Assembly: GCA_963794325.1 (NCBI GenBank)
Contig: CAWCDG010000004.1
Coordinates: 576,001 to 640,000 of the forward strand
Origin: an uncultured delta proteobacterium
GTDB taxonomy: Bacteria > Desulfobacterota > Binatia > Binatales > Binataceae
Direction: 5' to 3'
DNA length: 64,000 nt
Position numbers and translations under genes: made by a program. Below, one piece after another: positions 2,656-64,000 of the stretch (position 1 is the first letter of the stretch; the number at the start of each line of letters is the position of its first letter). The notes under the pieces were generated by a model. The model was given only the letters and a program-made list of their open reading frames with translations. It ran no database searches and had not been told where the DNA came from.

Positions 2656-2672
2656 GAAGCAGAACCGATTGA

Positions 2673-2970
2673 AATGAAACCCCTCCTGGGTTTCAAACTT
2701 CCCTGGGCAGGGTTAAACCCTGCACCTTAGAATTAAGATGCGGGACTTCGTCCCTGTTCGAACTAGTTGGGAGACCTTTCCCGCGGTGGCGACTTAGTCG
2801 CCAGCCGCTTACTTGGCGAGGCAAAGAGGAGACGCCGTAATGCCTCGCTTCGCTCGAGAAACACGCCAAAAAAGGTTCTAACAGGGACGAAGTCCCGCAT
2901 CTTTCTTAATTCTAAGGTGCAGGGTTTAACGCTGCCCAAGGAAGCGTGAAACCCACGGAGGGGTTTCACT
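2673..2970. repeat. Inverted pair of ~90-95 bp REP-like repeats (REPIN/MITE-like) around a ~110 bp spacer
   Basis: ~2673-2763 is the imperfect reverse complement of ~2874-2970; core GTGAAACCC..GGGTTTCAC..GGCAGG..CCCTGCACC recurs near 53171 and 56362. Confidence 0.85.
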
Positions 2971-50536: not shown

Positions 50537-50594
50537 ATCGATACTCCTTTATCCCCTTTCACCGGAATCGGCATTTCGCGTCATTGGTATTTCT

Positions 50595-51113
50595 TTATTT
50601 CGTCAGCTTTTTCAGATCCTTCAGCAACAGGAAAAGGTGAAGCGGGTCTGTCGGGCTCGGCTCGAAATCAAATTGCTCGTACCAGCGGCGCGCATTGTCG
50701 TCCTTTGCGTGCACCACCAGCGCTCGAATACCCGCGATATCCGCAGCCTGCGCCGTTCGCAACAAGGCATCTTTGAGAAGGGCTTTCCCGATACCCGATC
50801 CCTGGTCCGAACGGTCAACCGCAAGTCTTGCGAGAATCATCACCGGAACCGGATGCCGTGCGTTTCCTTTGATGACGCGCGACGGAGAATCTTCGCGCTG
50901 CACGGACCCCACCGCGAGGCTGTAGTAGCCGACGACCCGCCTGGCGCGGCATGCGACGTAGGTCTGCGCTGTATTGGCAGCTTGGTTCGCAAGCGCGAAT
51001 CGCTTCAGGAATCGGTTAAGGTCGTCCTGCCCGCAGTCGAATGGATCGGTTACATCGTCGGTACCGAGCTTATGAACCAGTGAGAACGCCTCTGTCGAGG
51101 CAGCCGCACTCAC
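50595..51113 (-). CDS. GNAT family acetyltransferase toxin (TacT/AtaT-like)
   Basis: FDCG..LN.FL, VVGYYSL, ILARLAVD..QGSGIG, VHAK. Confidence 0.92.
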   Translation of the reverse strand: MSAAASTEAFSLVHKLGTDDVTDPFDCGQDDLNRFLKRFALANQAANTAQTYVACRARRVVGYYSLAVGSVQREDSPSRVIKGNARHPVPVMILARLAVDRSDQGSGIGKALLKDALLRTAQAADIAGIRALVVHAKDDNARRWYEQFDFEPSPTDPLHLFLLLKDLKKLTK

Positions 51114-51385
51114 TCAAGGACGCTCCGCTCTGCGAGCAGACGGGCCAGCTTTCGCTTGATACGGGGAGGCCGGTCCAGGATTTTCAGAAACTCGTCCCAT
51201 CGTCTTTTGTCCAATACGAAGGAGCGCCGGTCTTCAAGCGTCTCGGCCGCCGCGATCAGCCCGGCATCCAACAAAAACTGGCTGACGGTCTTGTTAACCT
51301 GGCGCGCGGCCATTTGAAGCGTATTCTTGGCAGATGGAGTCACCCGCACATCAACTCGTTGAGTTCTCGAAACCGATGCTGGCAT
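51110..51385 (-). CDS. DUF1778 ribbon-helix-helix antitoxin
   Basis: RVDVRV..K..LQ.AA..KTVSQFLL, W..F...LD.PP; overlaps toxin start. Confidence 0.92.
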   Translation of the reverse strand: MPASVSRTQRVDVRVTPSAKNTLQMAARQVNKTVSQFLLDAGLIAAAETLEDRRSFVLDKRRWDEFLKILDRPPRIKRKLARLLAERSVLE

Positions 51386-51415
51386 TAGAAGGTGTCTCCT
51401 TCTCTGTTTGTATCA

Positions 51416-51434
51416 TCCGGACATTGTCCGGACA
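51416..51434. promoter_or_regulatory. Palindromic operator upstream of the DUF1778-GNAT module
   Basis: TCCGGACA-T-TGTCCGGA perfect 8-1-8 inverted repeat about 30 bp before the antitoxin ATG. Confidence 0.65.
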
Positions 51435-51435
51435 A

Positions 51436-52143
51436 CTACTCCGCCAGCATTGGGTTTGGTTTTGGGAAACCTAGTTTTGTGAGGGCCTCGTCGAGGGTGC
51501 GGATGTCTTCAGACGGAGTTGGTGCGTGCTCGGCCAGATCGTCCACGCGGCGGCGCATTTCTTTTAGTTCTTGGTAGAGACTGCCGGATAGGCGCGCGAT
51601 CACGACGAAGCAAACCCACGGGATTACTACCAGCGCCACAATCGTGATGATGATCATAAGGCGGGCTTGCGACTCCGCGTTGTTGGCGACCGCTATCAGA
51701 GCCGCGTCGTCGAGGCTCATCAGGTCTGCCACGCGGCCTTGCAGTTCGCGGAGCTTCGGCTCGAGGCTGTCGTCACTTGGCGACGCGGTGCGCATCGCAT
51801 CGAACAGCGGGCGCGCGTCGTTGGCGATTTTTTCGATCAGCTCCGCCTGCTCGCGGTTCGACATGTGCTCGCGTGCGATCTCGATTTCGGAAATGAATCC
51901 GCGCTGCTGGTCCATCACGATTTGCGAGGCGTCGGGCTGGGTGCGTCCCCAATCCATCTTGTAGAGGGCATTCTCCATGCCGTGGGCCGAGCGCGCCGCC
52001 GCATCCTCGTTCTCGTGAATCTCGCGCGGCAGCGTGCCGAGAATGTGGAATGCGCCTGCAATTACGGCGGCCGCGAGCAGCAGAATCGCCGGCGCGATCG
52101 CAGCGATGAAACGGAGCTTGGTAACGATAGTCAGATTGTTCAT
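51436..52143 (-). CDS. Two-TM protein with periplasmic helical (4HB sensor-like) domain and no output domain
   Basis: TM, helical periplasmic region, TM, short HAMP-like tail. Confidence 0.7.
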   Translation of the reverse strand: MNNLTIVTKLRFIAAIAPAILLLAAAVIAGAFHILGTLPREIHENEDAAARSAHGMENALYKMDWGRTQPDASQIVMDQQRGFISEIEIAREHMSNREQAELIEKIANDARPLFDAMRTASPSDDSLEPKLRELQGRVADLMSLDDAALIAVANNAESQARLMIIITIVALVVIPWVCFVVIARLSGSLYQELKEMRRRVDDLAEHAPTPSEDIRTLDEALTKLGFPKPNPMLAE

Positions 52144-52252
52144 GCGGCTTCTTTTTCGTTCCTGTGGTTGTTTCAAAAGGATGCCCGCGACGGACGCGAA
52201 AACGCAACGCCCGATGTGACCTCGCCGCGCCGGTATGCGATAATCCGCAGCG

Positions 52253-53140
52253 ATGAACTTTGCCGACCGCCTTGCGGATGCATCGCGCGCGAAAAACAGC
52301 GTCGTGGTGCTGGGTATCGATCCTCAGCTCGACGGGGCCGGCGCTCCGGGAATCCCGCATGGTTACACGCTTGCGCGCTTCTGTTGCGAAATCGTCGAGG
52401 CATGCGCGGGTTCCGCAATTGCGGTCAAGCCGCAGCTGGCGTTTTACGAGGCGCGCGGACTCGAAGGGATGCGCGCGTTTTGCGAGGTCGTCAAGCTGGC
52501 GCGGAAACTCGGACTGATTACGATCGCCGATGCGAAGCGCGGCGATATCGGCACGACATCGGCCGCTTATGCAGAAGCGTTTCTCGGCGACGGCGACTTC
52601 AATTGCGACGCGGTGACCGTCAACCCGTACCAGGGCAGCGACGCCGTGATGCCGTTTATCGCGAAGGTGAGAAGTGGCGGCCGCGGCGTGTTCGTGCTGG
52701 TGAAGACATCGAATCCATCGTCGGGCGAATTTCAGGATCTCAACGCGCCAAGTCGCCCGATTTGGGAATCGGTGGCCTCGCGAGTGAACGGATGGGGCGG
52801 CGATTTCATCGGCGATAGTGGGCTCAGCTCGATCGGCGCGGTGGTCGGCGCGACGTATCCAGTGCAGGCGCGGCGCGCGCGTGAGCTGATGCCACTCGCG
52901 ACGATCCTGGTGCCGGGATACGGCACGCAAGGTGGGACGGCGGCTGACGCGGTCGCGTCGGCGCGCGCGGACGGAAGTGGATTCATCGTGAATGCCAGTC
53001 GGAGCCTGCTCTACGCATATCGGACAAAAGATGGCGCCAGCCCGATCGAGGCAGCCGCCGAATACGCCGAGTCGATGCGCCAGGAACTTAACGCCACACT
53101 CGCCGCCCGCAGCACAGAAGGCCCGAAGCACTCCGCATAG
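52253..53140 (+). CDS. pyrF: Orotidine-5'-phosphate decarboxylase
   Basis: LGIDP, KPQLAFYE, DAKRGDIGTT, KTSNP, VVGAT, LVPGYGTQG. Confidence 0.96.
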   Translation: MNFADRLADASRAKNSVVVLGIDPQLDGAGAPGIPHGYTLARFCCEIVEACAGSAIAVKPQLAFYEARGLEGMRAFCEVVKLARKLGLITIADAKRGDIGTTSAAYAEAFLGDGDFNCDAVTVNPYQGSDAVMPFIAKVRSGGRGVFVLVKTSNPSSGEFQDLNAPSRPIWESVASRVNGWGGDFIGDSGLSSIGAVVGATYPVQARRARELMPLATILVPGYGTQGGTAADAVASARADGSGFIVNASRSLLYAYRTKDGASPIEAAAEYAESMRQELNATLAARSTEGPKHSA

Positions 53141-53225
53141 AGCCTTGCAGCACCGAACAACTGCATCTTTAGTGAAACCCTCCGCGGGTTTCACCCTTCC
53201 GCGGCAGGGGTGACCCCTGCACCCA
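53133..53225 (+). repeat. Left ~93-bp direct repeat (pyrF stop plus REP-like hairpins)
   Basis: CCGCATAGAGCCTTGCA...AGTGAAACCC..GGGTTTCAC..GGCAGGGGTGACCCCTGCACCCA aligns with 56325-56417. Confidence 0.85.
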
Positions 53226-53409
53226 AGTTCATCGTCACCTGGGCATCGCGCGAACGTCGGTGCATGTCGAATCGTAAGTCGCAACAACCCACCACACGCG
53301 ACTTCTCATCGCGGCGGCGCTGGAAACAACGTGTGAACAAAAAGAGGCCTATAATCTTGTACAGGCGCGCCATTTGATCTACAAGACGAGTTGAAATCGG
53401 AAGGGGAAG

Positions 53410-55905
53410 ACGGAAATCCAAGCACAAGCTGCTCCTCCACAGCCGCCGGAGGAGGTTAAGATACTCCACTTCTCCGATCCGCATTGCGGGTACGGATTCA
53501 AGGACGACCAATGGAAGGATCTGCTGAATTGGTCGGAGAATAACAAGCCGCACTTGATAGTAGTCTCAGGCGATTTCGTCAACAGCCCTTGGCGATGGTG
53601 CTTCCGTGATGCGAAGCGAAAAGTAGAGAAGCTGCGCGAGAAAGCCGGGTCCCCTGAATGTCTTACAGTGCCGGGCAATCATGACACTCGTATCCTCGGA
53701 ATCGTTCCCGTTGCGTGGATCTATCCTTCTCTGATCACCGCCGCTGCTGTTCTGACAGCGGTAACCGCCTTCGGGATAGTGTCGTCTCGCAGTTGGTATC
53801 TTCTGATAACGGTCGCGATTCTGATCGCTCTTAGATTTGCCGTGAGCGGAACGTTGTCGGCCAACCAGGGCGTCCGTATTCTTGGAACCGTTCGAGTTGC
53901 CTGGATCGATCCCGCACTGTTCGCAGCAGCGGCCGTTCTGACTGCCACTGCTTTTGGTGTAGTGCCCTACCTCGGTTGGTACCCGCTGATTGCCATCGCT
54001 GTCTTGATCGTTCTCAGATTTGCCCTGATCGGAAAATTTGAATCCTACTTCCCTCAGGGGGAACACCTCAGAGTGTTCGAAAAACTTGGGCTTGAGACCT
54101 TCACTTTTGATTCCGCATCCGTCGGTCCGTATTGGGCACAAGGGCTGATTGCGCCTCGACAGTTTATCGATTCTAAGGAAGAGTCAAAGAAGCGAAGGGA
54201 GGCCGCTCCCGAATCCCGGCCGTTTCGCATCGGCGTACTACATCATCACGCGATGCCGATCCCTTACGAACAGGAAGCAGAGCCAATGATGGTCTTGCGT
54301 AATGCTGGCGCATTGCTTCAGCAAGCGGCCAGTCTAGGCATCTCGCTTGTCCTCCATGGCCATCGCCATCGCTTCGGCTTTTCGCGAGTGACCGTCACAG
54401 CGGACGCTGAGGACTCCAAGGAGATTGCGGTTCTATCAACGGGTTCGGCTACGGCGGGAACTGAAGAGGACCATAATTTTAATCTAATAACGGTGAACCG
54501 TTGGGGCGCAGTGAAAATCACCCCGCACTGGTCGCACAAAGGATCCCCTTTCAAAGCGGCTCCGTCGTTCTGGGCTCGCTCGTTCGAGGACGCGGCACGC
54601 CAGTTTTTTCAGGTCAATGAACAAGCTAAAGGCTGCTATTGCGCTCGCACCTACAACACATTCGACATCAACGCGGAGGGCGACGCCCAACAATCGTTGG
54701 AGTTCTGTGGGTTACGCCCAATTCGAGGGCGCGGTATGGATGAAGTGCCGGGGACAATTGGGGCAGGTTCGACGGTCGGCCATCTGGAGCGCATTCGTCT
54801 CAAAACGCTGGTTTCTTCCGCAGGTCAGCAGATAATTCCTGAAAGCCCGAGCCGAACGCTCCGCACCTACTCGGCTAAGGTCAGATTTGAGCCTCCGCTG
54901 GACTCGGCGAACGAGCCGGTCAATTTCGCGTTACGATATTACGCGATCAGCTCGTATGCGATGTCTGAAAGGCAATTCAGAGAGATGTACCCCCCAAGCC
55001 CAATACAACCGACAGAATCTTGTTACGCAACGGTCAGCAATATTCCTACCGCCGAACTCGTGATCATTGTCCGGCTGCCTGAGGGGTTTAAAATCAAAGA
55101 TAACGGGAACCCTGGGCTCTCAGTGCTTCGTCTGGACGACAGCGCCGACATCGAGTTGCAGGAAGCTTTGCGAGGCAACCTGCGTTACGATCCGATTCTT
55201 AATCTCATTACCATGCGAGTTCCCTATCCTCCGCTCGATCGCGCTTATCGTCTTGAATGGCCTCTTCCAGAGGTGTGGCCGCTCCCCAAAGGGCTTTCGA
55301 ACAAGCCGGCCAGCCTGAGCCAAAAAGGGATGACCACCAAGGCGGCCACGAAAATGCTGAAACTGACAGAGTCAGATCCATACAACAGCCCGCTGAATAA
55401 GCTTGGGCCAGAGATACTTCAAGTTGCAATTGAAGCATTCGAGCTTGCTCAGGGCGATTCCACGCTCGAGTTCAGCATAATGGCATACGACCCAGAAAAG
55501 CTCGCATTGCGTGTGGCGGCCGCCAATTTTGCTGACCAGAAAGATCCTCGATGGAGTTGGCCGCTACCGTACGGTGATGGAATCGCAGGGCGCGTTTATA
55601 AGAATAATTTCGCTATGGTGGTTGTGAGGCAATTCGCCGTAGATAATGGGTTGCCATTTTACTATCTGCCAGTTAATGACCAGTTCGTTTCCGACAACGG
55701 AGGCGAGATGCCAGCGGTGATGATCTCGGTTCCACTTTGCTGCAAAGAAAACCCAGAGGAAATGTTTGCAGTGCTGAGTATTAGTTCGAACGATCCGGCG
55801 TGCAAGCTGGTTGATGTCACAGAGGAAGAAATGCGAACAACCAACAGCAACTTTGCGCAAGCGGTGGCGAACGCTTGCCTCAGGATATTCGAGACGATAG
55901 CATGA
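53410..55905 (+). CDS. Calcineurin-like metallophosphoesterase with inserted duplicated TM hairpins, central beta-rich domain and C-terminal GAF-like domain (start codon non-canonical or uncertain)
   Basis: In-frame ILHFSDPH upstream of the track start, SGDF, GNHD, LHHH, HGHRH; GDGIAGRV...ISVPL...AVLSISS GAF-like end. Confidence 0.8.
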   Translation, partial: TEIQAQAAPPQPPEEVKILHFSDPHCGYGFKDDQWKDLLNWSENNKPHLIVVSGDFVNSPWRWCFRDAKRKVEKLREKAGSPECLTVPGNHDTRILGIVPVAWIYPSLITAAAVLTAVTAFGIVSSRSWYLLITVAILIALRFAVSGTLSANQGVRILGTVRVAWIDPALFAAAAVLTATAFGVVPYLGWYPLIAIAVLIVLRFALIGKFESYFPQGEHLRVFEKLGLETFTFDSASVGPYWAQGLIAPRQFIDSKEESKKRREAAPESRPFRIGVLHHHAMPIPYEQEAEPMMVLRNAGALLQQAASLGISLVLHGHRHRFGFSRVTVTADAEDSKEIAVLSTGSATAGTEEDHNFNLITVNRWGAVKITPHWSHKGSPFKAAPSFWARSFEDAARQFFQVNEQAKGCYCARTYNTFDINAEGDAQQSLEFCGLRPIRGRGMDEVPGTIGAGSTVGHLERIRLKTLVSSAGQQIIPESPSRTLRTYSAKVRFEPPLDSANEPVNFALRYYAISSYAMSERQFREMYPPSPIQPTESCYATVSNIPTAELVIIVRLPEGFKIKDNGNPGLSVLRLDDSADIELQEALRGNLRYDPILNLITMRVPYPPLDRAYRLEWPLPEVWPLPKGLSNKPASLSQKGMTTKAATKMLKLTESDPYNSPLNKLGPEILQVAIEAFELAQGDSTLEFSIMAYDPEKLALRVAAANFADQKDPRWSWPLPYGDGIAGRVYKNNFAMVVVRQFAVDNGLPFYYLPVNDQFVSDNGGEMPAVMISVPLCCKENPEEMFAVLSISSNDPACKLVDVTEEEMRTTNSNFAQAVANACLRIFETIA

Positions 55906-56108
55906 TAGTTGAAATGACTAAGATTTCTGAATCGCTATTTGCCATGCCGATGGGGAAAGCTGACCCGCAGAAGGTGCGGGAGTTGTCCGACCGCCTTTTT
56001 GACGCCTACCTGAAGAGGAGTGGAAAACAGGCGCAGGTTATCGTAGCCGACAACAGCAATGGGTTGAACTCGGACGTTCCTGACGATTCCGGGAAGGCCA
56101 AGCCCTAG
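55902..56108 (+). CDS. 68-aa hypothetical protein coupled to the phosphoesterase
   Basis: ATG overlaps the upstream TGA (ATGA); MIVEMTKISESLFAMPMGKADPQKVRELSDRLFDAYLK. Confidence 0.55.
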   Translation: MIVEMTKISESLFAMPMGKADPQKVRELSDRLFDAYLKRSGKQAQVIVADNSNGLNSDVPDDSGKAKP

Positions 56109-56324
56109 TTTTTCCCGCTTCCCGTCTGTCCCCAATTTTATTACCAAGCGAGGCTCTATCTCGCAGTCTGGCCGAGCCACACCCCGCGTATCTAGGCTAC
56201 GCCCGTCCAAGCGACCTGCTGCGACAGGACGCGCGTGGGGGGTGAGTGTCAATCAGGCCGCCTTTACGGCTTTAGTAACTGAACGCGGCAATCATCGCGC
56301 GGCGGACAGATGGGCTGTCGCATA

Positions 56325-56417
56325 CCGCATAGAACCTTGCACCGCTGAAGAACTTAATCTTAGTGAAACCCGCGGTGGGTTTCACACTTCCTTCGGCAGG
56401 GGTGACCCCTGCACCCA
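56325..56417 (+). repeat. Right ~93-bp direct repeat
   Basis: CCGCATAGAACCTTGCA...AGTGAAACCC..GGGTTTCAC..GGCAGGGGTGACCCCTGCACCCA. Confidence 0.85.
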
Positions 56418-56462
56418 GTGAAATCGCGAAATGTTGAGGACAACCTTTCGCTCTCCGAAGCG

Positions 56463-57533
56463 TTAGGGCTTTAGAAGGACCTTCATTGCGTTGTCTTTTT
56501 TGGCGTTGAAAATTTCGTAGGCTTTGGGGGCGTCGGTTAGAGGCATTATGTGGCTTATCAGGGGGCGCGGATCTAGCGTGCCTTTTTCTATCAGGCGGGA
56601 TAGGTCCGGGATGTGCGCGTTGATGTTGGCGAGGCCTATCTTGAAGGTCAGGTCGCGCATGAAGGCGTAGCCCATTGGGAAATTGAACGACTGGGAGGCG
56701 AAGACGCCGATTACTGAGACGGTGCCACCGCCGCGTACCGCCATTATTGCGGAGGTCAGTGCGCCATCGTTGCCTACTGCCTCGATCGTTACGTCGGCGC
56801 CGCGGCCTTCGGTGCGGTCGAGTATCGTTTGACTTGCTTTTTCAGTGTCTACCGGGAACGCACCGAGTTTGCGCGCTAGTTCCAGGCGATAGGGGATGCT
56901 GTCCACTGCGATTACTTCGGCGGGGCCGAAGAGTTTCGCACTCATCACGGCGCATAGGCCGACCGGGCCGCATCCGAAGACTGCGACCGTGTCGCCGGGG
57001 CGGATGTTGCCGTTGATCGCGCCGAAGTAACCCGTCGGCAGGATGTCGGCGAGGAAGACTGCACAGTCGTCGTCGATTGCATCGGGCAGCGGGTAGCAGG
57101 TGTAATCGGCCATTGGGACGCGCACCGCTTCGGATTGCTCGCCGCCCAGCCATCCGAGCTTGCCGGCGGCGCTCGCGCCGTAGCCGAATACCGCGGAGCC
57201 GCTCTCGAAGCATTGCGAAGGCTGCCCGCGCCGACAGAAGAAGCATCGACCGCAGGCGACCAATCCCGACACCACGACGCGCTGGCCTTTCTTCAGACGA
57301 TCGACGCCGGCGCCGACTTCCTCGATCACGCCGACGCCTTCATGGCCCAGCACGAAGCCGGGCTCGATGGGAAAATTGCCGTGATAGTAGTGGAGGTCGG
57401 AGCCGCAGATTCCGGCGCGGGTGATTCGCACGAGGGCGTCGGTGGGCGTTTTGAGTTCGGGGTCGTCGACGCGCTCGACGCGCACGTCGTGAGGTCCGTG
57501 GAAGACAGTTCCTTTCATTGTACCTTTGGACAA
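56463..57533 (-). CDS. Zinc-dependent alcohol dehydrogenase (formaldehyde dehydrogenase-like)
   Basis: GICGSDLH, LGHEGVG, CGRCFFC..C, LADILPTG, GCGPVG. Confidence 0.93.
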   Translation of the reverse strand: MSKGTMKGTVFHGPHDVRVERVDDPELKTPTDALVRITRAGICGSDLHYYHGNFPIEPGFVLGHEGVGVIEEVGAGVDRLKKGQRVVVSGLVACGRCFFCRRGQPSQCFESGSAVFGYGASAAGKLGWLGGEQSEAVRVPMADYTCYPLPDAIDDDCAVFLADILPTGYFGAINGNIRPGDTVAVFGCGPVGLCAVMSAKLFGPAEVIAVDSIPYRLELARKLGAFPVDTEKASQTILDRTEGRGADVTIEAVGNDGALTSAIMAVRGGGTVSVIGVFASQSFNFPMGYAFMRDLTFKIGLANINAHIPDLSRLIEKGTLDPRPLISHIMPLTDAPKAYEIFNAKKDNAMKVLLKP

Positions 57534-57587
57534 CCTCCGCGCACGGGTTCGGAGAATAGGCAGAATCCTGAGTTCCGCGCAAAAGCG

Positions 57588-57638
57588 CCCTCACCCGCTC
57601 CTTCGGCGCGGCCTCTCCCGCAACAAAGCGGGCGAGGC
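57588..57638. repeat. REP-like element
   Basis: CCCTCACCC...CCTCTCCCGC-AACAAA-GCGGGCGAGG hairpin in a divergent intergenic region. Confidence 0.5.
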
Positions 57639-57741
57639 GAATAATCAGTGGCGCGGGACGCCACATCCTAATTTGGGGCGGGTTTGCAGAGGCGGCGAAG
57701 GGCGTGGTAATTCCAGAGTTCCTGATACGTTGGAGGTTCCT

Positions 57742-58206
57742 ATGTTTCAAAACGTGAAGAAAATTCTTTCGCCGATCGATTTTTCAGAGCACTCGATGGA
57801 AGCGATGCGCGCGGCGATGGAAATGGCGAAGGACGTCGGCGCCGAAGTTCACCTGATGCATGTGATCGCGCCGCATCACATCTTCATCCCGCTGCCCCTG
57901 GCTACCAGCGGCGAACAGAGCCGCGAGCTTGCGCGTGAGGCCTCGATGATCGAGCAGGCGGAAGAAGAACTCGCGCGCATCAAGAAAGACGAGTTCGGCG
58001 ATTCGAAGAATGTCCTCACGTACGCAGTGGTCGGCCATCCGGTTCAGAAACTCGTTGACTACGCCAAAGAGCAGGGCATCGACTTGATCGTGATGGCGAC
58101 GCACGGACGCAGCGGCGCCGAGCATATGCTGCTAGGCGGAACGACCGAGAAGCTGGTGCGCAACGCCCCGTGCTCGGTCCTGGTGATCCGTCCGCGCAAA
58201 CAGTAA
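57742..58206 (+). CDS. Universal stress protein
   Basis: ILSPIDFS, DLIVMATHGRSG..LLGGTTEKLVRNAPCSVL; GGAGG RBS. Confidence 0.94.
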   Translation: MFQNVKKILSPIDFSEHSMEAMRAAMEMAKDVGAEVHLMHVIAPHHIFIPLPLATSGEQSRELAREASMIEQAEEELARIKKDEFGDSKNVLTYAVVGHPVQKLVDYAKEQGIDLIVMATHGRSGAEHMLLGGTTEKLVRNAPCSVLVIRPRKQ

Positions 58207-58281
58207 TCGAGCGATAACGTCAATTCCCGGCGGTCGCGAGCGCATGACGCGCGGCCGCCGCGGCGCCATTGGAGATTTGGC

Positions 58282-58680
58282 ATGAACCTCGAACAGCAGA
58301 AGGAACGCGCGCTGGCTTTTCTCAAGAATTTCGAAAAAGCAGATCCGAAGATTTTCGCCGATTTGATTACGGACGACTTCGAATTCGAAATGATGGGGCG
58401 GCTGCCGGGAGTCGCGCCTGTACGCGGCAAAGAGGCTTACCTGAAGGGCACACCGAAGTTGCTGAAGGCGATGTTTCCCAACGGCTTGAACATGAAGTTC
58501 CATTCGACGATCGCCGAGGGACCGCATGTCGCGATTCAGGCTGAGTCAGACACGACGGCCGGCAACGGGAAGAAATACGCGAACTTCTATCACTTCTACT
58601 TCCTGTTCAAGGGCGACAAGATCGCGCAGGTTCGCGAGTACAACGACGTAAATCACGTGCGCGAAGTCTTCATGAGCTGA
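58282..58680 (+). CDS. SnoaL-like / NTF2 family protein
   Basis: IAEGPHVA, GKKYAN.YHF.F, KI..VREY.D. Confidence 0.9.
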   Translation: MNLEQQKERALAFLKNFEKADPKIFADLITDDFEFEMMGRLPGVAPVRGKEAYLKGTPKLLKAMFPNGLNMKFHSTIAEGPHVAIQAESDTTAGNGKKYANFYHFYFLFKGDKIAQVREYNDVNHVREVFMS

Positions 58681-58857
58681 TTTCGAGCGCTTCGCGATCT
58701 CAGAGGCCACTACCTGCTCCCCCGCTCTTATCTCTCCCCCTCAACACGGATTTCGATTCGGTCGCTCAGTCGAAAATGACCCAAACCGGAAGTGTGGTCA
58801 GCGGGTCGCGGAGAATTGGATCAGCGGATAATGGGCTCAGGGAGCCACTCAGAGCGG

Positions 58858-58932
58858 AAAAATAAGGGCCAGGCAGATTGCTCTACCCGGCCCGTAGCCA
58901 ACCGGGAAAAGGGGGGCAAACCCCGGCCAGCA
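58858..58932 (-). ncRNA. Candidate stand-alone small RNA (~75 nt)
   Basis: Promoter TTGCAA-N16-TAGAAT; hairpin with C-rich loop (GUUUGCCCCCCUUUU); terminator GGGCCGGGUAGA-GCAA-UCUGCCUGGCCC-UUAUUUUU. Confidence 0.6.
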
Positions 58933-58938
58933 ATTTGT

Positions 58939-58966
58939 ATTCTATACAACTGCGCGCGTGTTGCAA
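58939..58966 (-). promoter_or_regulatory. Sigma70-like promoter of the sRNA candidate
   Basis: -35 TTGCAA (58961-58966), 16-bp spacer, -10 TAGAAT (58939-58944). Confidence 0.6.
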
Positions 58967-59018
58967 TAACAATCAGGACGGCTCGTTTTATAGTTTTTGA
59001 GCGCTCTTTTGCTCGGGC

Positions 59019-59288
59019 TCAGACCCGACCGCCGCCTAGCGCGGGGATGAAATGCACTTCGCTGTCCTCGTTAACAGTGTCGAGGACGCCGCCAGTCGCG
59101 ATTTCCCCGTCGATCGACACCGCAATAGACGGCCGGATGTCGCCTTCTTGTAGTAACTGCTGGTCTATCCCTGGAAACTGATCGCCAAGTTCCCGGACGA
59201 TCTCGCGAATTGATTTTCCCGAGACGTTCACGCGCTCCCGGCCGCCGGTAAACTTGCGTAAGAGTGCGGGGATGACAACGGTCGGCAT
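59019..59288 (-). CDS. MoaD/ThiS family ubiquitin-like protein
   Basis: VVIPALLRKFTGG, IAVSIDGE, C-terminal IPALGGGRV. Confidence 0.88.
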   Translation of the reverse strand: MPTVVIPALLRKFTGGRERVNVSGKSIREIVRELGDQFPGIDQQLLQEGDIRPSIAVSIDGEIATGGVLDTVNEDSEVHFIPALGGGRV

Positions 59289-59291
59289 TGC

Positions 59292-59328
59292 AAAATTAAA
59301 AGGGGCGAGCGATGTACGCCCGCCCCCT
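59292..59328 (-). terminator. Intrinsic terminator-like hairpin between the xdh large subunit and the moaD-like gene
   Basis: GGGGCGGGCG-TACAT-CGCTCGCCCC followed by TTTTAATTTT on the minus strand. Confidence 0.6.
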
Positions 59329-59344
59329 TGTTGATCACTCCCGA

Positions 59345-61633
59345 TCAATCAGCCGCGGCAGAATGTTTTGTCGAGTCGCGATGCTTCAGCATTTCCTTCA
59401 GCAGCTTCGGCGGCGACATCGGCGTCTCCGTCATCCTGACTCCAACGGCGCGATAGATAGCGTTGGCTACAGCGGCCACCGGCGGCACGATCGACACTTC
59501 ACCGACGCCGCGCACGCCCAGCGGATGGCCGGGGTTTGCTTCCTCGACGACTACCGTTTCGATCATCGGCAAGTCGAGGCAAGTGGGCATGCGGTAGTCG
59601 AGGAATCCGGAGTTACGCAGCGTGCCCTTGTCGTCGTAAAAATATTCTTCGTTGAGCGCCCATCCGAGTCCCTGTGCGGTGCCGCCCTGCATCTGTCCTT
59701 CGACGTAACTCGGATGAATCGCCTTGCCGGCATCCTGCGCGACGGTGCATCGCAGGATTTGCACCTTGCCGGTGTCGGGATCGACCTCGACGTCCACGCA
59801 GGTGGTCGCGAATCCGGGGCCGACGCCACGCGCATTCACGCTCGCGCGACCGGTGATCGGTCCTCCGGTGCGCGGGAAGCGGGGCGCGAGCTGCTTGATC
59901 GACATCGGCGGCACGCCGTTGCCTTTCGCGTGCAGCATGCCGTCGCGGAATTCCACTTCGTCGGGCTTCTTCTCCCAGACCTTTGCGGCGCGCTCGATTA
60001 GCTGGCGCTCGGCGTCCTTGGCGGCTTCGTACACCGCCATCCCAGTTGCAAAGGTGACGCGGCTGCCGCCGGTCACGTCGGTATGGCCGATCGAATCGGT
60101 GTCGGCGGTGATCGGACGCACGTCGGTGACGGCGAGTCCGAGGACTTCAGCGGTGATCATCGCCATCGAGGCGCGCGAGCCGCCGATATCCGGCGAGCCG
60201 GTGACGACGCTGGCGGTTCCGTCGGCGTGGATATTCACCGTCGCAGAGGATTGCATCCCGGCATTGAACCAGAAGCCCGACGCGACGCCGCGGCCGCGGA
60301 ATTTGCCGGTCAGTTTCGATTTGTAATGAGGGCTGTTCTTGATTCCTTCGAGCGTCTGAATCAACCCGATGCGTTTGAACGGAGGACCGACGACCTGCGC
60401 GTCGCCTTCCTTGACGGCGTTCTTGAGACGGAAATCGATCGGATCGATTCCGCATTTCACGGCAAGCTCATCGATCACGGTTTCGGAGGCGAACGCGGCG
60501 TTGGTTGCGCCCGGTGCGCGATAGGCCGCGGTTTTGGGACGGTTGACGACGACGTCGTACGCGTCGATCAGGAAATTCTCGACAGTATATGGAGCAATGA
60601 TGCACATCGCGCCCGCGCCGACCGGCGATCCGGGAAACGCGCCCGCCTCGTACGCCATCCAGATTTCGGCGGCGACGATTTTGCCGTCCTTGGTCGCGCC
60701 CATCTTAACTTTGATCTTCGAGCCCGAGGTCGGGCCGCTGGCGCGGAGCACTTCCGATCGCGACATGACGAGCTTGACCGGCGCGCCGGTTTTCTTTGAC
60801 AGCAGGACAGAGAGCGGCTCGAGGTAGATGGTGGTCTTGCCGCCGAAGCCGCCGCCGATTTCAGCCGGCACGACTTTGATATGGCCGACCGGCATCCCGA
60901 GCACTTGCGCGCTGAGCGAGCGCACGTCGAAGGCGCCCTGCGTCGAGCAGTAAATCGTCGCCTGTCCGTCGGAGTTGTAGATGCCGACCGCGTTGTGCGG
61001 CTCGATATATCCCTGGTGGACCATCGCGGTGTTGAATTCGCGCTCGATCACGTAGTCGGCAGCCTTGAATCCCGCCTCGAGGTCACCGCGCTTGAACTGG
61101 TAATGCTGCGCGACGTTGGTCTGCTTGTCGCCCTCCTCCTTGTTGCGCAGATCCTTCAGCAGAATCGGCGCGCCCGGCCTGGTCGCGACGTCAACGGTCA
61201 TCACGGGCGGCAGCACCTCGTATTCGACTTCGATAAGGCGCAGCGCTTCTTCGGCGATATGCGGGCTGGTCGCGGCGACGGCTGCGATTGCATGGCCGTC
61301 GTAGAGGACCTTGTCGTGTGCGAGGATGTTCATCGAGAGATACATCGGGTTGATAACCATCTCGCCGGACTGCTCGAGCTTGTTCTCGGCCTTCGGCAGG
61401 TCCTTGCCGGTGACGATCGCCTTGACGCCGGGGAGCTTGAGCGCCTTGTCGATTTTGATCGATTTGATATTCGCGTGAGCGTGCGGGCTGCGCAGCACCT
61501 TGCCGTGCAGCATGCCGGGGAACGCGTAATCGGCGCCGTACTTGGCGCGGCCGGTCACTTTGTCGACGCCGTCGTGCCGGATCGGACGCGTGCCGATAAC
61601 TTTGAAATTGCCAGTCGTGGTTGATGCCGCCAT
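59345..61633 (-). CDS. Xanthine dehydrogenase family molybdopterin-binding subunit
   Basis: KVTGRAKY, LRSPHAHA, IGGGFGGK, AYRAPG, EGQMQGG, RGVGE. Confidence 0.93.
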   Translation of the reverse strand: MAASTTTGNFKVIGTRPIRHDGVDKVTGRAKYGADYAFPGMLHGKVLRSPHAHANIKSIKIDKALKLPGVKAIVTGKDLPKAENKLEQSGEMVINPMYLSMNILAHDKVLYDGHAIAAVAATSPHIAEEALRLIEVEYEVLPPVMTVDVATRPGAPILLKDLRNKEEGDKQTNVAQHYQFKRGDLEAGFKAADYVIEREFNTAMVHQGYIEPHNAVGIYNSDGQATIYCSTQGAFDVRSLSAQVLGMPVGHIKVVPAEIGGGFGGKTTIYLEPLSVLLSKKTGAPVKLVMSRSEVLRASGPTSGSKIKVKMGATKDGKIVAAEIWMAYEAGAFPGSPVGAGAMCIIAPYTVENFLIDAYDVVVNRPKTAAYRAPGATNAAFASETVIDELAVKCGIDPIDFRLKNAVKEGDAQVVGPPFKRIGLIQTLEGIKNSPHYKSKLTGKFRGRGVASGFWFNAGMQSSATVNIHADGTASVVTGSPDIGGSRASMAMITAEVLGLAVTDVRPITADTDSIGHTDVTGGSRVTFATGMAVYEAAKDAERQLIERAAKVWEKKPDEVEFRDGMLHAKGNGVPPMSIKQLAPRFPRTGGPITGRASVNARGVGPGFATTCVDVEVDPDTGKVQILRCTVAQDAGKAIHPSYVEGQMQGGTAQGLGWALNEEYFYDDKGTLRNSGFLDYRMPTCLDLPMIETVVVEEANPGHPLGVRGVGEVSIVPPVAAVANAIYRAVGVRMTETPMSPPKLLKEMLKHRDSTKHSAAAD

Positions 61634-61676
61634 GTCTTATTTCACCTCTCGAATCCCAGCGTCGTTGCTGTGCTCT

Positions 61677-62177
61677 CTAACGGGCGGCCGCTTTGCCTTC
61701 GCCCTGCGAGCGAATGTCCGCGGCGGCGTCGAGGACCGCTTTCACAATTTTGTCGTAGCCGGTGCATCGGCAAAGATTGCCGGCCAGCGCGTAGCGAACT
61801 TCGGGCTCGGTCGGCTTCGGATTTCGATCGAGCAGCGACTTGGCCGAGATCAAAAATCCGGGAGTGCAGATGCCGCATTGCAGGCTGGCATGCTCGAGAA
61901 ACTTGTTTTGCAAAACGCTGAGCACGCCCTGCGTGGCGAGTCCCTCGACGGTAACGATTTTTTTGCCCTGCGCCTCGACGCCAAGCATCAGGCACGAGTC
62001 GATCGCGCGCCCATCGACCATCACGGTGCATGCGCCGCAATCGCCAGTGAGGCATCCTTCCTTCGAGCCGGTGAGTTCGAGCACGTCGCGCAGGGTTTCG
62101 AGCAGGCTTTGTCGCGGCTCGCACAGGAACTCGACCGTTTCGCCGTTGATTGTCGCTTCTACCAAGGTCTTTTTCAT
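61677..62177 (-). CDS. (2Fe-2S)-binding subunit (CoxS/XdhC-like)
   Basis: GCLTGDCGACTV, QCGICTPG, GNLCRCTGY. Confidence 0.95.
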   Translation of the reverse strand: MKKTLVEATINGETVEFLCEPRQSLLETLRDVLELTGSKEGCLTGDCGACTVMVDGRAIDSCLMLGVEAQGKKIVTVEGLATQGVLSVLQNKFLEHASLQCGICTPGFLISAKSLLDRNPKPTEPEVRYALAGNLCRCTGYDKIVKAVLDAAADIRSQGEGKAAAR

Positions 62178-62200
62178 ATCTTTATGCCGTAATGTTTGAT

Positions 62201-63071
62201 TCAGCTTTTTTTCGCGCGTTCGGCGGCGATGACCAGCGCACGGCGGGTGAGCACGCCGGCCACGTGGACCCGAAAATCGATCGTCCCGCGCATGTCGTCG
62301 ATTGGCTTGCAGATCTCGCTCACCGCGCGTCCCGCAGCTTCGAGCGCCGCGTCGTCGAGTTTCTTGCCGACCAGCCCCTCGGCAGCCTTGCTCTCGAGCA
62401 GCGGCGTCGCCGCAACCGCGCCGAGCCCGATACGCGCCGCCTTCACTTTGTCGCCGTCGAGCGTGACCGACACGCCGACGCCGACCACTGCGATATCCAT
62501 CTCGTTGCGCGGGATAAATCGCAGATACGCGTCGCTCGAATGGGGCGCGGGGGCGGGAACTATCAATTCGACCAGCAACTCGCCGGGCTTCAGCACCGTG
62601 CGTCCAGGGGACACGACGAACGACTCGACCGGAACCTCTCGTTCACCAGCCGGGCCGACGATTCGGGCGCGCGCACCGAGCGCGATCAACGCGGGCGTCG
62701 TGTCGGCGGCGGGCGACCCGTTGCATAGATTGCCGCCGACCGAGGCGCGATTCTGAATCTGGAGCGATCCGATGAGATGCGCCGCCTCGGTCAGGCCTGG
62801 GTAATGACGGCGCATCACGTCGCTCTGCGCTAATCTCGATGCAGGGGACGGCCGCGCCGAGGCGCAATCCCTTTTTCGCATCGAAGGAGAGCGTCTGCAG
62901 CTCCTTGATTTTCTTGACGTCGACCAGATGTTCGGTGCGGCGAACTCCGGCGCGAAGCTGAATCAGGATGTCGGTGCCGCCGCATAGCGGGCGGGCATTC
63001 TCGCCGTGGGCTTTGAGGATGCTGACGGCCTGATCGAGCGTGCTAGGGGCTTCGTAATTAATGGCGTGCAA
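62201..63071 (-). pseudogene. FAD-binding subunit (CoxM-like), frameshifted near 62833 (probably an assembly indel)
   Basis: YEAP..LCGGTD N-terminus and IGSLQIQNRASVGGNLCNGSPAAD C-terminus in different frames; GGAGG RBS. Confidence 0.88.
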
Positions 63072-63167
63072 GTGTGGAAACCTCCGGTCGGGTCAAGATT
63101 ATACCCGCCTTTATTCCTTGGATAGCCTACTTGCCGCGCGCTGAAAAGGGGACGCAGATAGCGGGGG

Positions 63168-63476
63168 TCATGCCGCGCGCTTGCGCGGACGAACCTCGCG
63201 CTCGATTTTGGCCGCGAGTACATCTTTGGCTTTTTCGAGTTCGTAGTCGCTCTGCAGTCCGAGCCAGAATTCCGCTGATGTACCGAGATAGCGGGAGAGG
63301 CGAAGTGCGGTGTCCGCCGAGATGGCGCGCTCACCCTTGACGATTTCCGCAATCCGGTTGGCCGGCACGCGCAGGTCCATCGCAAGCCGATGGATGCTGA
63401 TACCGGTCGGGCGAATAAAGTCTTCGTGCAGTACCGCTCCGGGGTGAAGCGGTGGAAATTTCTTTCTGCGGGCCAT
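63168..63476 (-). CDS. higA: HigA family addiction module antitoxin (orphan)
   Basis: HPGAVLHEDF, RI.EIVKG.R.IS.DTALRL, FWLGLQ..Y.L. Confidence 0.92.
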   Translation of the reverse strand: MARRKKFPPLHPGAVLHEDFIRPTGISIHRLAMDLRVPANRIAEIVKGERAISADTALRLSRYLGTSAEFWLGLQSDYELEKAKDVLAAKIEREVRPRKRAA

Positions 63477-63503
63477 ATCTGCGTGCCTTAACGCGCTTCG
63501 CGC

Positions 63504-63726
63504 GAGATCCTTCGCTCCGCTCAGGATGACACAAAAACAAGACGAAGGATTGAGATACGCAAGTCGCTCTCAGAAGGAATTCGTGTCATCTGAGCGGAGC
63601 CGCCTTGTGTCATTCTGAGCGCAGCGAAGAATCCCGGATCTTTCTGGATGGCCGCCGATGCACCCCAACCACGGTACATGCGAGGCGCCTGGTGGGTGAT
63701 TCCGGGATTCTTCGCTGCGCTCAGAG
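63504..63726. repeat. Cluster of four TGTCAT(C/T)CTGAGCGNAGCGAAG(G/A)ATC-type REP copies
   Basis: Copies at ~63504-63531 (reverse), 63584-63600 (partial), 63608-63638, 63701-63726 (reverse); the last two form an inverted pair. Confidence 0.8.
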
Positions 63727-63792
63727 TTTGTGAGTGAGGAGGTGAAGCGCGGGGTCTGAAACCTCGCTCTTCGCCTTTGGAATTTTGGAGGG

Positions 63793-63827
63793 GGAGGTGG
63801 CGATGCGCATCGCGCATCGCCACCTCC
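63793..63827. terminator. Perfect 16-bp hairpin after the upstream minus-strand gene
   Basis: GGAGGTGGCGATGCGC-ATC-GCGCATCGCCACCTCC; no clear U-tract. Confidence 0.55.
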
Positions 63828-63834
63828 TTGGGGA

Positions 63835-64000
63835 TTAGTGGCCGGACTGGACCATCTTCTCGGGGGTGAAGAAGTTGCGGTCCACGGCGCCCATGTTGAC
63901 GAACAAGCTGTCGGTATGACTTGCCGGGCCCGGTGAATAGACCACGGTCGAAAAGCCGCTGGTTATATCTTCATCAACCAGCGCGGTTTCGAACATGCGT
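63835..64000 (-). CDS. C-terminal fragment of a hypothetical (possibly DUF1329-like) protein
   Basis: Manual translation ...RMFETALVDEDITSGFSTVVY...VNMGAVDRNFFTPEKMVQSGH*. Confidence 0.55.
   Translation of the reverse strand, partial: RMFETALVDEDITSGFSTVVYSPGPASHTDSLFVNMGAVDRNFFTPEKMVQSGH

Follow-up and report, generated by a model that had tools for sequence, protein, structure and literature searches.

What is encoded by the two genes that lie between pyrF and a zinc-type alcohol dehydrogenase (ADH) gene in the genome of an uncultured bacterium of the family Binataceae, and do they form a mobile island, as was originally predicted for this locus? The genome comprises 4.45 Mb in ten contigs; the locus is part of contig CAWCDG010000004.1 and was analyzed within a stretch of 64 kb, hereafter the window, whose positions serve as coordinates. 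The larger gene specifies a calcineurin-like metallophosphoesterase (MPE) joined to a beta-sandwich and a C-terminal GAF domain, and the smaller gene, which follows it on the same strand, specifies a microprotein. The pair is a conserved two-gene operon. We consider the chances about even (a probability of roughly 0.5) that this operon is a conflict module serving phage defence or resembling a toxin-antitoxin system, in which the microprotein, seated on the GAF domain, would hold the phosphodiesterase off, and its release would lead to the destruction of a phosphodiester substrate.

The N-terminal part of the large protein carries the five motifs of calcineurin-like phosphoesterases that had been recognized at the outset (DxH, GD, GNHD, HH and GHxH), and these metal-binding motifs were found to be invariant in 33/33 aligned sequences. 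A Pfam search assigned residues 22–99 to Metallophos (PF00149; E 2.1e-9, 38.5 bits compared to a gathering threshold of 21.5), and Metallophos_2 aligned with residues 276–365 at 21 bits, short of the 27 required by its threshold. The closest sequence relatives of solved structure were Rv0805 (E 2.3e-11), Icc (E 6.1e-11) and 2dxl/2zo9 (titled 'Phosphohydrolase', E 7.6e-7), which we take to be GpdQ, with SbcD and Mre11 ranking next. Both catalytic halves align with those of Rv0805, Icc/CpdA and 2dxl/2zo9, including the D-S and HHH/GH-x-H motifs; however, these are soluble proteins of ∼270–330 aa, without a transmembrane (TM) insert, beta-sandwich, GAF domain or partner.

Four hydrophobic segments (residues ∼100–215) follow the GNHD motif of the window protein, and were earlier taken to anchor it in the membrane. 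They represent two hairpins that arose by a tandem 183-nt duplication (53764–53851 and 53947–54034, 70% identity; repeat family D2), which is common only to P0001 and P0002, the two closest database relatives, while members of the window protein's clade typically have just one hairpin. The hydrophobic insert is present in 26/33 aligned members and absent from the other 7/33, so although the four segments are real, anchoring is not a defining trait of the family. Because the insert-less members retain the beta-sandwich, the GAF domain and the microprotein, membrane contact is not the core of the mechanism, and since the tether is a clade-specific addition, a soluble nucleotide or nucleic-acid substrate is likelier than a lipid.

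The remaining two domains were modelled with AlphaFold2 on alignments of 23 family members. The middle region, previously described as a ∼250-aa beta-rich stretch of unassigned nature, was modelled as a beta-sandwich of ∼260 aa (residues 383–645, pLDDT 90.6). In VIA-align comparisons it was closest to the luminal domain of OST1/ribophorin I (6c26, Z 13.3, root-mean-square deviation (rmsd) 4.5, 212 residues aligned; 6s7o, Z 12.9), followed by ITIH1 (Z 10.3), two bacterial proteins with no assigned function, and the N-domains of M1 aminopeptidases and LTA4 hydrolase (Z 7–9); Foldseek gave a match at E 4e-5. This resemblance of the model to OST1 and M1 enzymes names a fold, not a function.

The C-terminal domain (residues 640–836, pLDDT 87.7) was modelled as a GAF fold, in agreement with the original prediction. 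Foldseek returned 92 PDB matches at E≤0.001, nearly all of those listed being GAF or GAF-like, with the cAMP-bound GAF domain of Lcd1 (5w10) as the best match (E 4.6e-7). VIA-align retrieved 228 chains at Z≥8, the best at Z 12.4 (rmsd 3.4, 141 residues aligned), and 50 GAF entries were spread over Z 12.4–9.8. A family profile also found GAF proteins among PDB sequences (5w10, E 7.7e-4; 4mcw, E 0.0097); no Pfam GAF family matched the large protein at E≤1. The fold matches include domains that bind cAMP or cGMP (5w10, 1ykd, 1mc0 and PDE6), as well as the periplasmic domain of phage T4 holin T with antiholin RI (6px4, 6psk, 6pxe).

The small open reading frame (ORF) downstream was originally described as a 68-aa frame joined to the large gene by an ATGA overlap. 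The frame is present, but its homologues in the closest clade (loci L006–L010) begin at the position of the window ATG 55914, and the microprotein probably starts there, with 64 aa, rather than at the overlap. It consists of an N-terminal strand (M-x-K-I-S-E-S-L-F), a helix and a charged disordered tail, and the same plan of short strand, helix and charged tail recurs in several clades. Compared with L006, the locus of the closest species-representative relative, the ratio of nonsynonymous to synonymous substitution rates (dN/dS) is 0.22 over 63 codons at a dS of 0.7, and therefore the microprotein gene is a real coding gene. No Pfam or NCBIfam family matched its product.

The two genes were found to be consistently paired. 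With the window microprotein as the query, tblastn detected homologues 3' of the large gene in L006, L007, L009, L010 and L002 (E 4e-24 to 9e-4; L002 and L010 are the same place in the same genome). Among 29 distinct relatives' loci, from several phyla, with a near-full-length match to the large protein, 28 have a same-strand ORF of 54–100 aa whose start lies −25 to +60 nt from the large-gene stop codon, compared to 39/175 when the same test was applied to crudely called neighbouring control genes; at 25/29 of the loci it is the longest such ORF. The exception is L016, where the large gene is followed by a kinase/TPR pair matching the PADLOC candidate PDC-M71. The microproteins evolve fast, falling into five small groups and 13 singletons in phmmer comparisons, and yet all of them have retained a similar size and position. 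A comparison of 23 loci revealed no further conserved gene within 3 kb, the only cross-locus matches between neighbours in this range being IS66 transposases, DNA methylases and CapP-like peptidases. The small ORF, proposed earlier to be coupled to the large gene, is a genuine partner that is conserved together with it.

A complex of the full-length protein with the 64-aa partner was then modelled. The median score of three runs was 0.69, compared to 0.01 for the best of three controls; this mark was reached by 116/157 solved complexes and 2/215 mismatched pairs, which is a rough guide, as our own alignments were used. The runs agreed in at least 77% of the contacts, and the pLDDT of the partner was at least 57. 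In the modelled interface, residues 7–36 of the partner face residues 666–677, 733–753, 779–787 and 810–831 of the GAF domain and residue 428 of the beta-sandwich. The modelling thus supports a position of the microprotein on the GAF domain, and makes it the only GAF ligand for which there is any support.

The domain identities, the conservation of the catalytic residues, the pairing of the genes, the purifying selection and the rarity of the family were established by computation. The mode of action, comprising inhibition (not activation), a substrate, a trigger and a role in defence, is inferred. The first gene would provide a calcineurin-like phosphodiesterase of the CpdA/Rv0805 class, with the beta-sandwich as a 'cap' and the GAF domain at the C-terminus, and the clade-specific membrane hairpin, duplicated in the window protein, would tether the catalytic domain to the inner membrane face. 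The second gene would provide a translationally coupled protein of 64–68 aa, whose helix would dock on the GAF domain and keep the phosphodiesterase silent. If the microprotein were lost or displaced, or if a ligand competed for the GAF domain, the enzyme would be set free and would destroy its phosphodiester substrate, which, rather than a lipid, would most likely be a nucleotide or a nucleic acid.

Our working hypothesis is that the family combines an enzyme effector with a sensor domain and a small protein regulator, akin to the metallophosphatase effectors of defence systems. More tentatively, it may represent an undescribed, phylum-spanning class of two-gene immune or toxin-antitoxin modules, in which the GAF domain of a metallophosphodiesterase is held by a microprotein clamp, similar to SpoIISB or P-gamma, and in which the opening of this clamp upon infection or stress leads to the destruction of nucleotides or nucleic acids. 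If so, no earlier case of a protein antidote to a calcineurin-like phosphoesterase toxin would exist, and the GAF domain would sense a protein instead of a small molecule. Such a compact two-gene system, with natural variants that have or lack the membrane tether, could reveal the substrates of such phosphodiesterases and how these enzymes are silenced, and it would add a conserved, fast-evolving microprotein of a kind that gene callers can miss.

Table 1. Features of the pyrF–ADH region of the window and of one relative's locus (L007, in its own coordinates).
Feature	Position	Strand or orientation	Basis or remarks
pyrF (orotidine-5'-phosphate decarboxylase), context gene	52253..53140	+	Pfam OMPdecase E 1.8e-27
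REP-like double-hairpin element, copy 1 (GTGAAACCC..GGGTTTCAC plus CAGGGGTGACCCCTG)	53172..53225	+	genome search
Large gene: metallophosphoesterase, TM hairpins, beta-sandwich and GAF	53395..55905	+	836 codons and stop
GGAGGAGG Shine-Dalgarno-like run, then ATA (53461) 5 nt later	53448..53463	+	candidate non-canonical start (putative)
MPE motifs I–III: D28-x-H30, G59-D60, G94-N95-H96-D97	53476..53685	+	invariant in 33/33 aligned
Four hydrophobic helices (two 2-TM hairpins) between MPE motifs III and IV	53692..54039	+	hydropathy, duplication
MPE C-terminal half: FDSAS (D239), H283-H284-H285, G322-H323-R-H325	54109..54540	+	Metallophos_2, alignment
Beta-sandwich, fold like OST1/ribophorin I luminal domain and M1 aminopeptidase N-domain	54541..55314	+	model mc5bec32a5067; no Pfam match
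GAF domain, Y-G-D-G-I-A-G-R motif (G727, G729, G732 invariant)	55315..55902	+	model md8c7592767c9
Microprotein gene	55902..56108	+	68 codons if read from the ATGA overlap, 64 if read from ATG 55914
Diverged pyrF 3'-end relic	56274..56332	+	repeat family D1, 72% over 88 nt compared to the real end
REP-like element, copy 2	56363..56417	+	genome search
Zinc-type alcohol dehydrogenase (ADH), context gene	56463..57533	− (convergent)	Pfam ADH_N, ADH_zinc_N
L007 neighbours	L007:10952-14603	convergent, directly downstream	PADLOC: CBASS-like cyclase E 4.6e-104, TRIP13 E 3.6e-118

The family is sparse, widely scattered and accessory. A word-indexed search recovered 64 relatives, many of 720–870 aa, that aligned end to end. 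In a set of 1.84 billion representative proteins (50%-identity clusters), a profile of the beta-sandwich and GAF domains had 1745 matches at E≤1e-3, 1019 at E≤1e-10 and 395 at E≤1e-30; among the 150 matches listed, most were 700–860 aa long, with the beta-sandwich and GAF domains at the C-terminal end. The strong representatives (at least 395) are named only 'metallophosphoesterase' or 'hypothetical protein' in the searched libraries. A scan of species-representative genomes yielded 77 loci, and member records are labelled Proteobacteria, Acidobacteriota, Verrucomicrobiia, Nitrospira and others.

Among close relatives of the source organism the gene is rare. When the full protein was the query, clear relatives were found in 2/24 other genomes of the genus (G007, 39% identity; G013, 26% identity), and a third (G014) gave merely a 100-residue match to the catalytic part (E 2.6e-4). 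The beta-sandwich and GAF profile matched at E≤1e-10 in 1/300 other genomes sampled from the phylum. The original prediction had named a core gene, syntenic in relatives, among the findings that would refute it, and the gene is not core. The genus and phylum counts, as well as those for pyrF loci given below, include one unpublished genome (G019), which gave no match and on which no claim rests.

The neighbourhoods of 21 loci were scanned, covering crudely called genes within ∼5.5 kb (120 proteins compared with Pfam and 81 with PADLOC). At L007, the large gene is adjoined by a CBASS gene set that also contains TIR and SAVED fragments (Pfam), with an IS66 transposase and a DruA-like fragment upstream. 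CapP-like peptidases adjoin L013 and L028, the latter also having a CBASS phospholipase effector, and PDC-M71A/B adjoin L016. A type IIG restriction enzyme is encoded near L039, cytosine methylases near L011 and L024, PIN toxins near L009 and L018, and a Zeta toxin near L020. IS66 or Tn3 transposases were found near L007, L015 and L032, and prophage-type genes near L014 and L019.

The architecture was not recognized originally as any named system, and the library searches agreed: Pfam, PADLOC, NCBIfam and PHROGs contain no model that covers it. In PHROGs, only generic metallophosphoesterase families were matched; the best 3 of 30 matches in the ESM Atlas belong to clusters called 'hypothetical protein' with Metallophos; and no description of this architecture was found in a literature search. 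Six RefSeq contigs that carry family members did not occur in the examined parts of the DefensePredictor supplements.

The nearest named family is NF053862 (DS9_1, the DS-9A anti-phage phosphoesterase; equivalog), matched at E 1.4e-20 and 73.6 bits compared to a cut-off of 420. This match covers only the catalytic domain (residues 248–357), and two relatives gave E 6e-19 to 9e-21. The DS-8 model (NF053861) scored 16.4 bits against a cut-off of 790, and the YaeI, CpdA, LpxG and SbcD models of NCBIfam gave E above 1e-4; with the CpdA model NF008359 (cut-off 225), the window protein had no match at E≤0.1 and two relatives reached 20–25 bits. According to the DefensePredictor study, DS-8 is a metallophosphatase-NACHT protein and DS-9 a pair of the metallophosphatase DS-9A and the HAD phosphatase DS-9B; both protect Escherichia coli from phage, mutation of the catalytic site abolishes the protection by DS-8 and by DS-9A, and the targets are unknown (PMC13092281). 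Metallophosphatases have thus been validated as anti-phage effectors only recently. The window family resembles these systems in having a calcineurin-like phosphoesterase fused to or paired with a regulatory module. However, it lacks a HAD partner and a NACHT or other NTPase domain (Pfam), and DS-9A, for which the study names a metallophosphatase domain only, is extended at the N-terminus and shows no stretch of hydrophobic residues behind GNHD within the first 400 characters of its sequence. The DS systems originate from E. coli and their activity was demonstrated by experiment, whereas the window family is known from sequence alone. Since only the catalytic domain is common, the scores fall below both cut-offs and the partner domains are missing, the family is not a member of DS-8 or DS-9.

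A parallel to the pairing with a small protein is offered by SpoIISA/SpoIISB, a toxin-antitoxin pair of Bacillus subtilis, where the large gene also comes first and the small one second. In both cases, the GAF domain of a membrane-anchored protein would be bound by a small partner from the same operon, a contact that is predicted by modelling for the window pair. SpoIISA is a membrane toxin that lyses cells; the small, natively disordered SpoIISB binds the GAF-fold domain that SpoIISA exposes to the cytoplasm, with nanomolar affinity (PMC3057836). In contrast, SpoIISA has no enzymatic domain, while the window effector is a metallophosphoesterase with a beta-sandwich, and no Pfam family beyond Metallophos, hence no SpoIISA-type family, matched the large protein at E≤1. 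By analogy, the resemblance may point to a possible way of working, not to membership.

Several observations weigh against a conflict module. The window pair sits among ordinary metabolic genes (pyrF, ADH and Usp), as do at least 4/21 of the scanned loci (L008, L010, L031 and L047), and because the tally of 21 loci has no matched control, the association with defence genes is suggestive only. When 72,556 plasmid records and 50,697 phage records were searched with the beta-sandwich and GAF domains by tblastn, no match was obtained at E≤1e-5, although relatives of 20–25% identity could escape it. In PADLOC-DB 2.0.0, the large protein had no match at E≤1 and the small one matched only LmuB (E 0.011, 12 bits). 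The small ORFs of distant clades have no detectable mutual homology, and the modelled complex does not reveal whether the microprotein inhibits, activates or serves as an adaptor. A gene order in which the toxin precedes the antidote is the less common one. Finally, the window copy has no canonical start and that of its closest relative has a frameshift (see below), so the local copies may be decaying.

Two other functions were weighed against the conflict module. The enzyme may be a physiological second-messenger phosphodiesterase (PDE), class III-like and regulated by its GAF domain, that tunes cAMP, cGMP or another nucleotide, with the microprotein as a gamma-like regulatory subunit. The closest solved relatives, Rv0805 and Icc, are cyclic-nucleotide phosphodiesterases, relatives are labelled 'CpdA' by their source annotations, cAMP- and cGMP-binding domains are among the best GAF matches, and the neighbours of the window pair and of several other loci are metabolic. 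The PDE6/P-gamma pair is likewise a GAF-bearing phosphodiesterase with a small, partly disordered subunit; the GAF domains of PDE6 are matched at Z ∼10, and the titles of these PDB entries name the inhibitory P-gamma subunit. P-gamma bridges a GAF domain and the catalytic site of PDE6. However, the catalytic domains of PDE2, 5, 6, 10 and 11 have a fold different from that of calcineurin-like phosphoesterases, and the GAF domains of these enzymes are N-terminal and in tandem, in contrast to the single C-terminal one here. The distribution of the family, moreover, is extremely patchy, which is unusual for a signalling housekeeper; members often adjoin CBASS, restriction-modification, toxin-antitoxin and insertion sequence elements; the named family that comes closest acts against phage; and there is neither a cyclase or signalling gene conserved nearby nor any third conserved gene within 3 kb. 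A second-messenger role is therefore considered unlikely, though it has to be taken seriously. A still less probable proposal is that of a membrane-lipid phosphoesterase, in which the hairpin within the catalytic domain of most members would set the active site at the bilayer to cleave the head group of a lipid, much as LpxH, LpxG or sphingomyelinase-like enzymes do. It is consistent with faint NCBIfam matches to LpxG and LpxH (E 0.04–0.08) and with the likening of DS-8 to the sphingomyelinase-like SMPDL3A in the DefensePredictor study (PMC13092281). These matches amount to 12–16 bits, far below the cut-offs of 134–350, and the members that have no hydrophobic insert but keep all the other components argue against a lipid substrate.

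The 5' end of the large gene in the window is anomalous. Although the frame is open for 836 codons, as expected for the ∼830-aa gene originally described, neither ATG, GTG nor TTG is present between the in-frame TGA at 53392–53394 and motif I, and the earliest canonical start is TTG 53554, located 3' of the DxH motif. A product of ∼830 aa therefore needs a non-canonical start, unless the start was lost. One candidate is the ATA preceded by the GGAGGAGG run (Table 1), and ATC 53416 is a second; the former site falls inside a 48-nt stretch (∼53409–53456) that matches L006 except for one base, compared to an identity of about 84% for the gene overall. The database relative P0001 (86% identical) has a TTG start and reads L-N-Y-K-T-S-R-N-R-R, where the window has the same frame with TGA in place of an arginine. 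L006 (about 81% identical) starts with GTG, and the window has GTA at this point, together with small indels that are partly in G-runs. A canonical start before motif I was found in 22/22 other full-length loci examined, and the public gene call for exactly the window sequence (P0003) is a 539-aa fragment.

Three explanations are thus considered for the window copy: initiation at a near-cognate codon, a very recent inactivation, or errors in the assembly. In L006 itself, one additional G in a G-run shifts the frame by +1 where the GAF domain begins (L006:9880-9900; equivalent to 55481 in the window), and dN/dS remains low 3' of it. This frameshift is probably either very recent or a long-read homopolymer error, and as it may be an assembly error, it was not counted as decay; the defects of both copies could be of this origin. 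For the large gene, the comparison with L006 yielded a dN/dS of 0.155 (613 codons) and, within the GAF domain, of 0.107 (140 codons); dS was 0.5–0.7 across both genes. Among sequencing runs, three soil-metagenome DNA runs of one study, with small shares, and no RNA run were listed as containing the sequence; their contigs match the window exactly at, e.g., 53459–53609 and 55727–55877, and none of them spans 53328–53441.

The large gene of the window may then be a recently disabled remnant of a family that works elsewhere, with the intact small gene still under selection; its product would have at most 783 aa from TTG 53554 and would lack the DxH metal ligands. The missing start, the TGA, the GTA with its indels, the truncated public gene call and the canonical starts of all the other loci examined are consistent with this explanation. 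Any inactivation must, however, be very recent, since the 836 codons are intact and dN/dS is low (0.11–0.16). The strong GGAGGAGG site 5 nt before the ATA, preserved in the stretch that is nearly identical in L006, argues against a remnant, as does the position of some of the differences in G-runs: the assembly may be a long-read one, which makes sequencing errors possible, and the available reads leave 53328–53441, including the TGA, uncovered. On balance, we regard a remnant as somewhat unlikely.

The borders of the segment were also considered. Direct repeats of 144 nt (53082–53225 and 56274–56417) surround it, as originally reported, and its GC content is 0.51–0.57 across 53250–56500 compared to 0.60–0.65 in the flanks, in agreement with the AT shift seen earlier after pyrF. 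The last 54 nt of each repeat are a double-hairpin element resembling a repetitive extragenic palindrome (REP). It has 209 matches in the genome, on both strands and in all ten contigs, of which 85 are near full length (≥45 nt, ≥85% identity); consequently, the repeat is not a specific boundary. Its reading as an att site, suggested by a 24-mer that occurs just twice in the window, was rejected in view of the 209 genomic matches. The REP-like element is also present at window positions 2667–2762 and 2868–2983, and it has a very high summed depth in the soil-metagenome contigs. In the second repeat, the REP-like copy is preceded by a 59-nt diverged pyrF relic that reads L-N-A-A-I-I-A-R-R-T-D-G-L-S-H-T-A-stop in register with the real gene end; three relatives have pyrF ends that match it at ∼70% identity, and it is absent from L006.

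The gene pyrF is present in 28/30 other genomes of the genus (E≤1e-40). In 28/28 relatives' pyrF loci, synteny upstream and through pyrF is common to all, while DNA homology ends at 53024–53225; ADH was not found within 1.5 kb of pyrF in any of these loci, and no DNA homology of ≥150 nt to window positions 53226–64000 was detected within ∼16 kb downstream of pyrF in 12 relatives. A common block follows pyrF in 11/12 relatives (∼16 kb examined), and in the window genome this block lies 392 kb further along the contig, where the sequence in front of it is the very block found before the phosphoesterase pair in L006. To its right, the L006 pair is followed by ADH, Usp and subsequent genes as in the window (homology across 56464–63488; the ADH synteny is common to the window and L006, not to other relatives examined), whereas its left flank is different and there is no pyrF, REP element or pyrF relic at its borders. 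The synteny with L006 and the displaced block indicate that the chromosome was rearranged at the pyrF junction, where the spacers carry REP elements, and that this junction is not the edge of an insertion. An excision and re-insertion between such spacers would fit this pattern, as would an assembly join. The rearrangement points are at 629,140 and 1,020,430–1,021,453 (G000 contig C4), joined through a REP copy.

A mobile island of 3.2 kb, integrated site-specifically at the pyrF 3' end with the repeats as attL and attR, is consequently the least probable of the explanations considered. It would account for the flanking repeats, for the lowered GC content and for the diverged gene end within the second copy, such as integration at a gene end can leave. 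However, the perfectly matching part of the repeats is the high-copy REP-like element, the segment 53226–56417 contains only the two genes and no integrase or transposase, the L006 pair joins the same ADH–Usp block with none of these border features, and the genes that follow pyrF in 11/12 relatives are located elsewhere, joined to the stretch found before the pair in L006. Of the original description, the repeats are real but mark no specific boundary, the notion of a mobile island is not upheld, and the comparison of the pyrF–ADH junction revealed a breakpoint instead of an insertion site. A REP element and a chromosomal breakpoint can thus mimic the borders of an island.

Two further features were noted upstream of pyrF. 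An antitoxin resembling TacA (PF08681, E 2e-19) is encoded on the minus strand at 50598–51385, 0.9 kb upstream of pyrF, together with a GNAT acetyltransferase that resembles the toxin TacT, and this pair looks like a lineage insertion, because most relatives' pyrF loci have no DNA homology to ∼50551–51436. Between this pair and pyrF, also on the minus strand (51439–52176), lies a gene for a 246-aa protein with a hydrophobic segment at each terminus and no Pfam match, which is kept beside pyrF in 28/28 relatives' pyrF loci.

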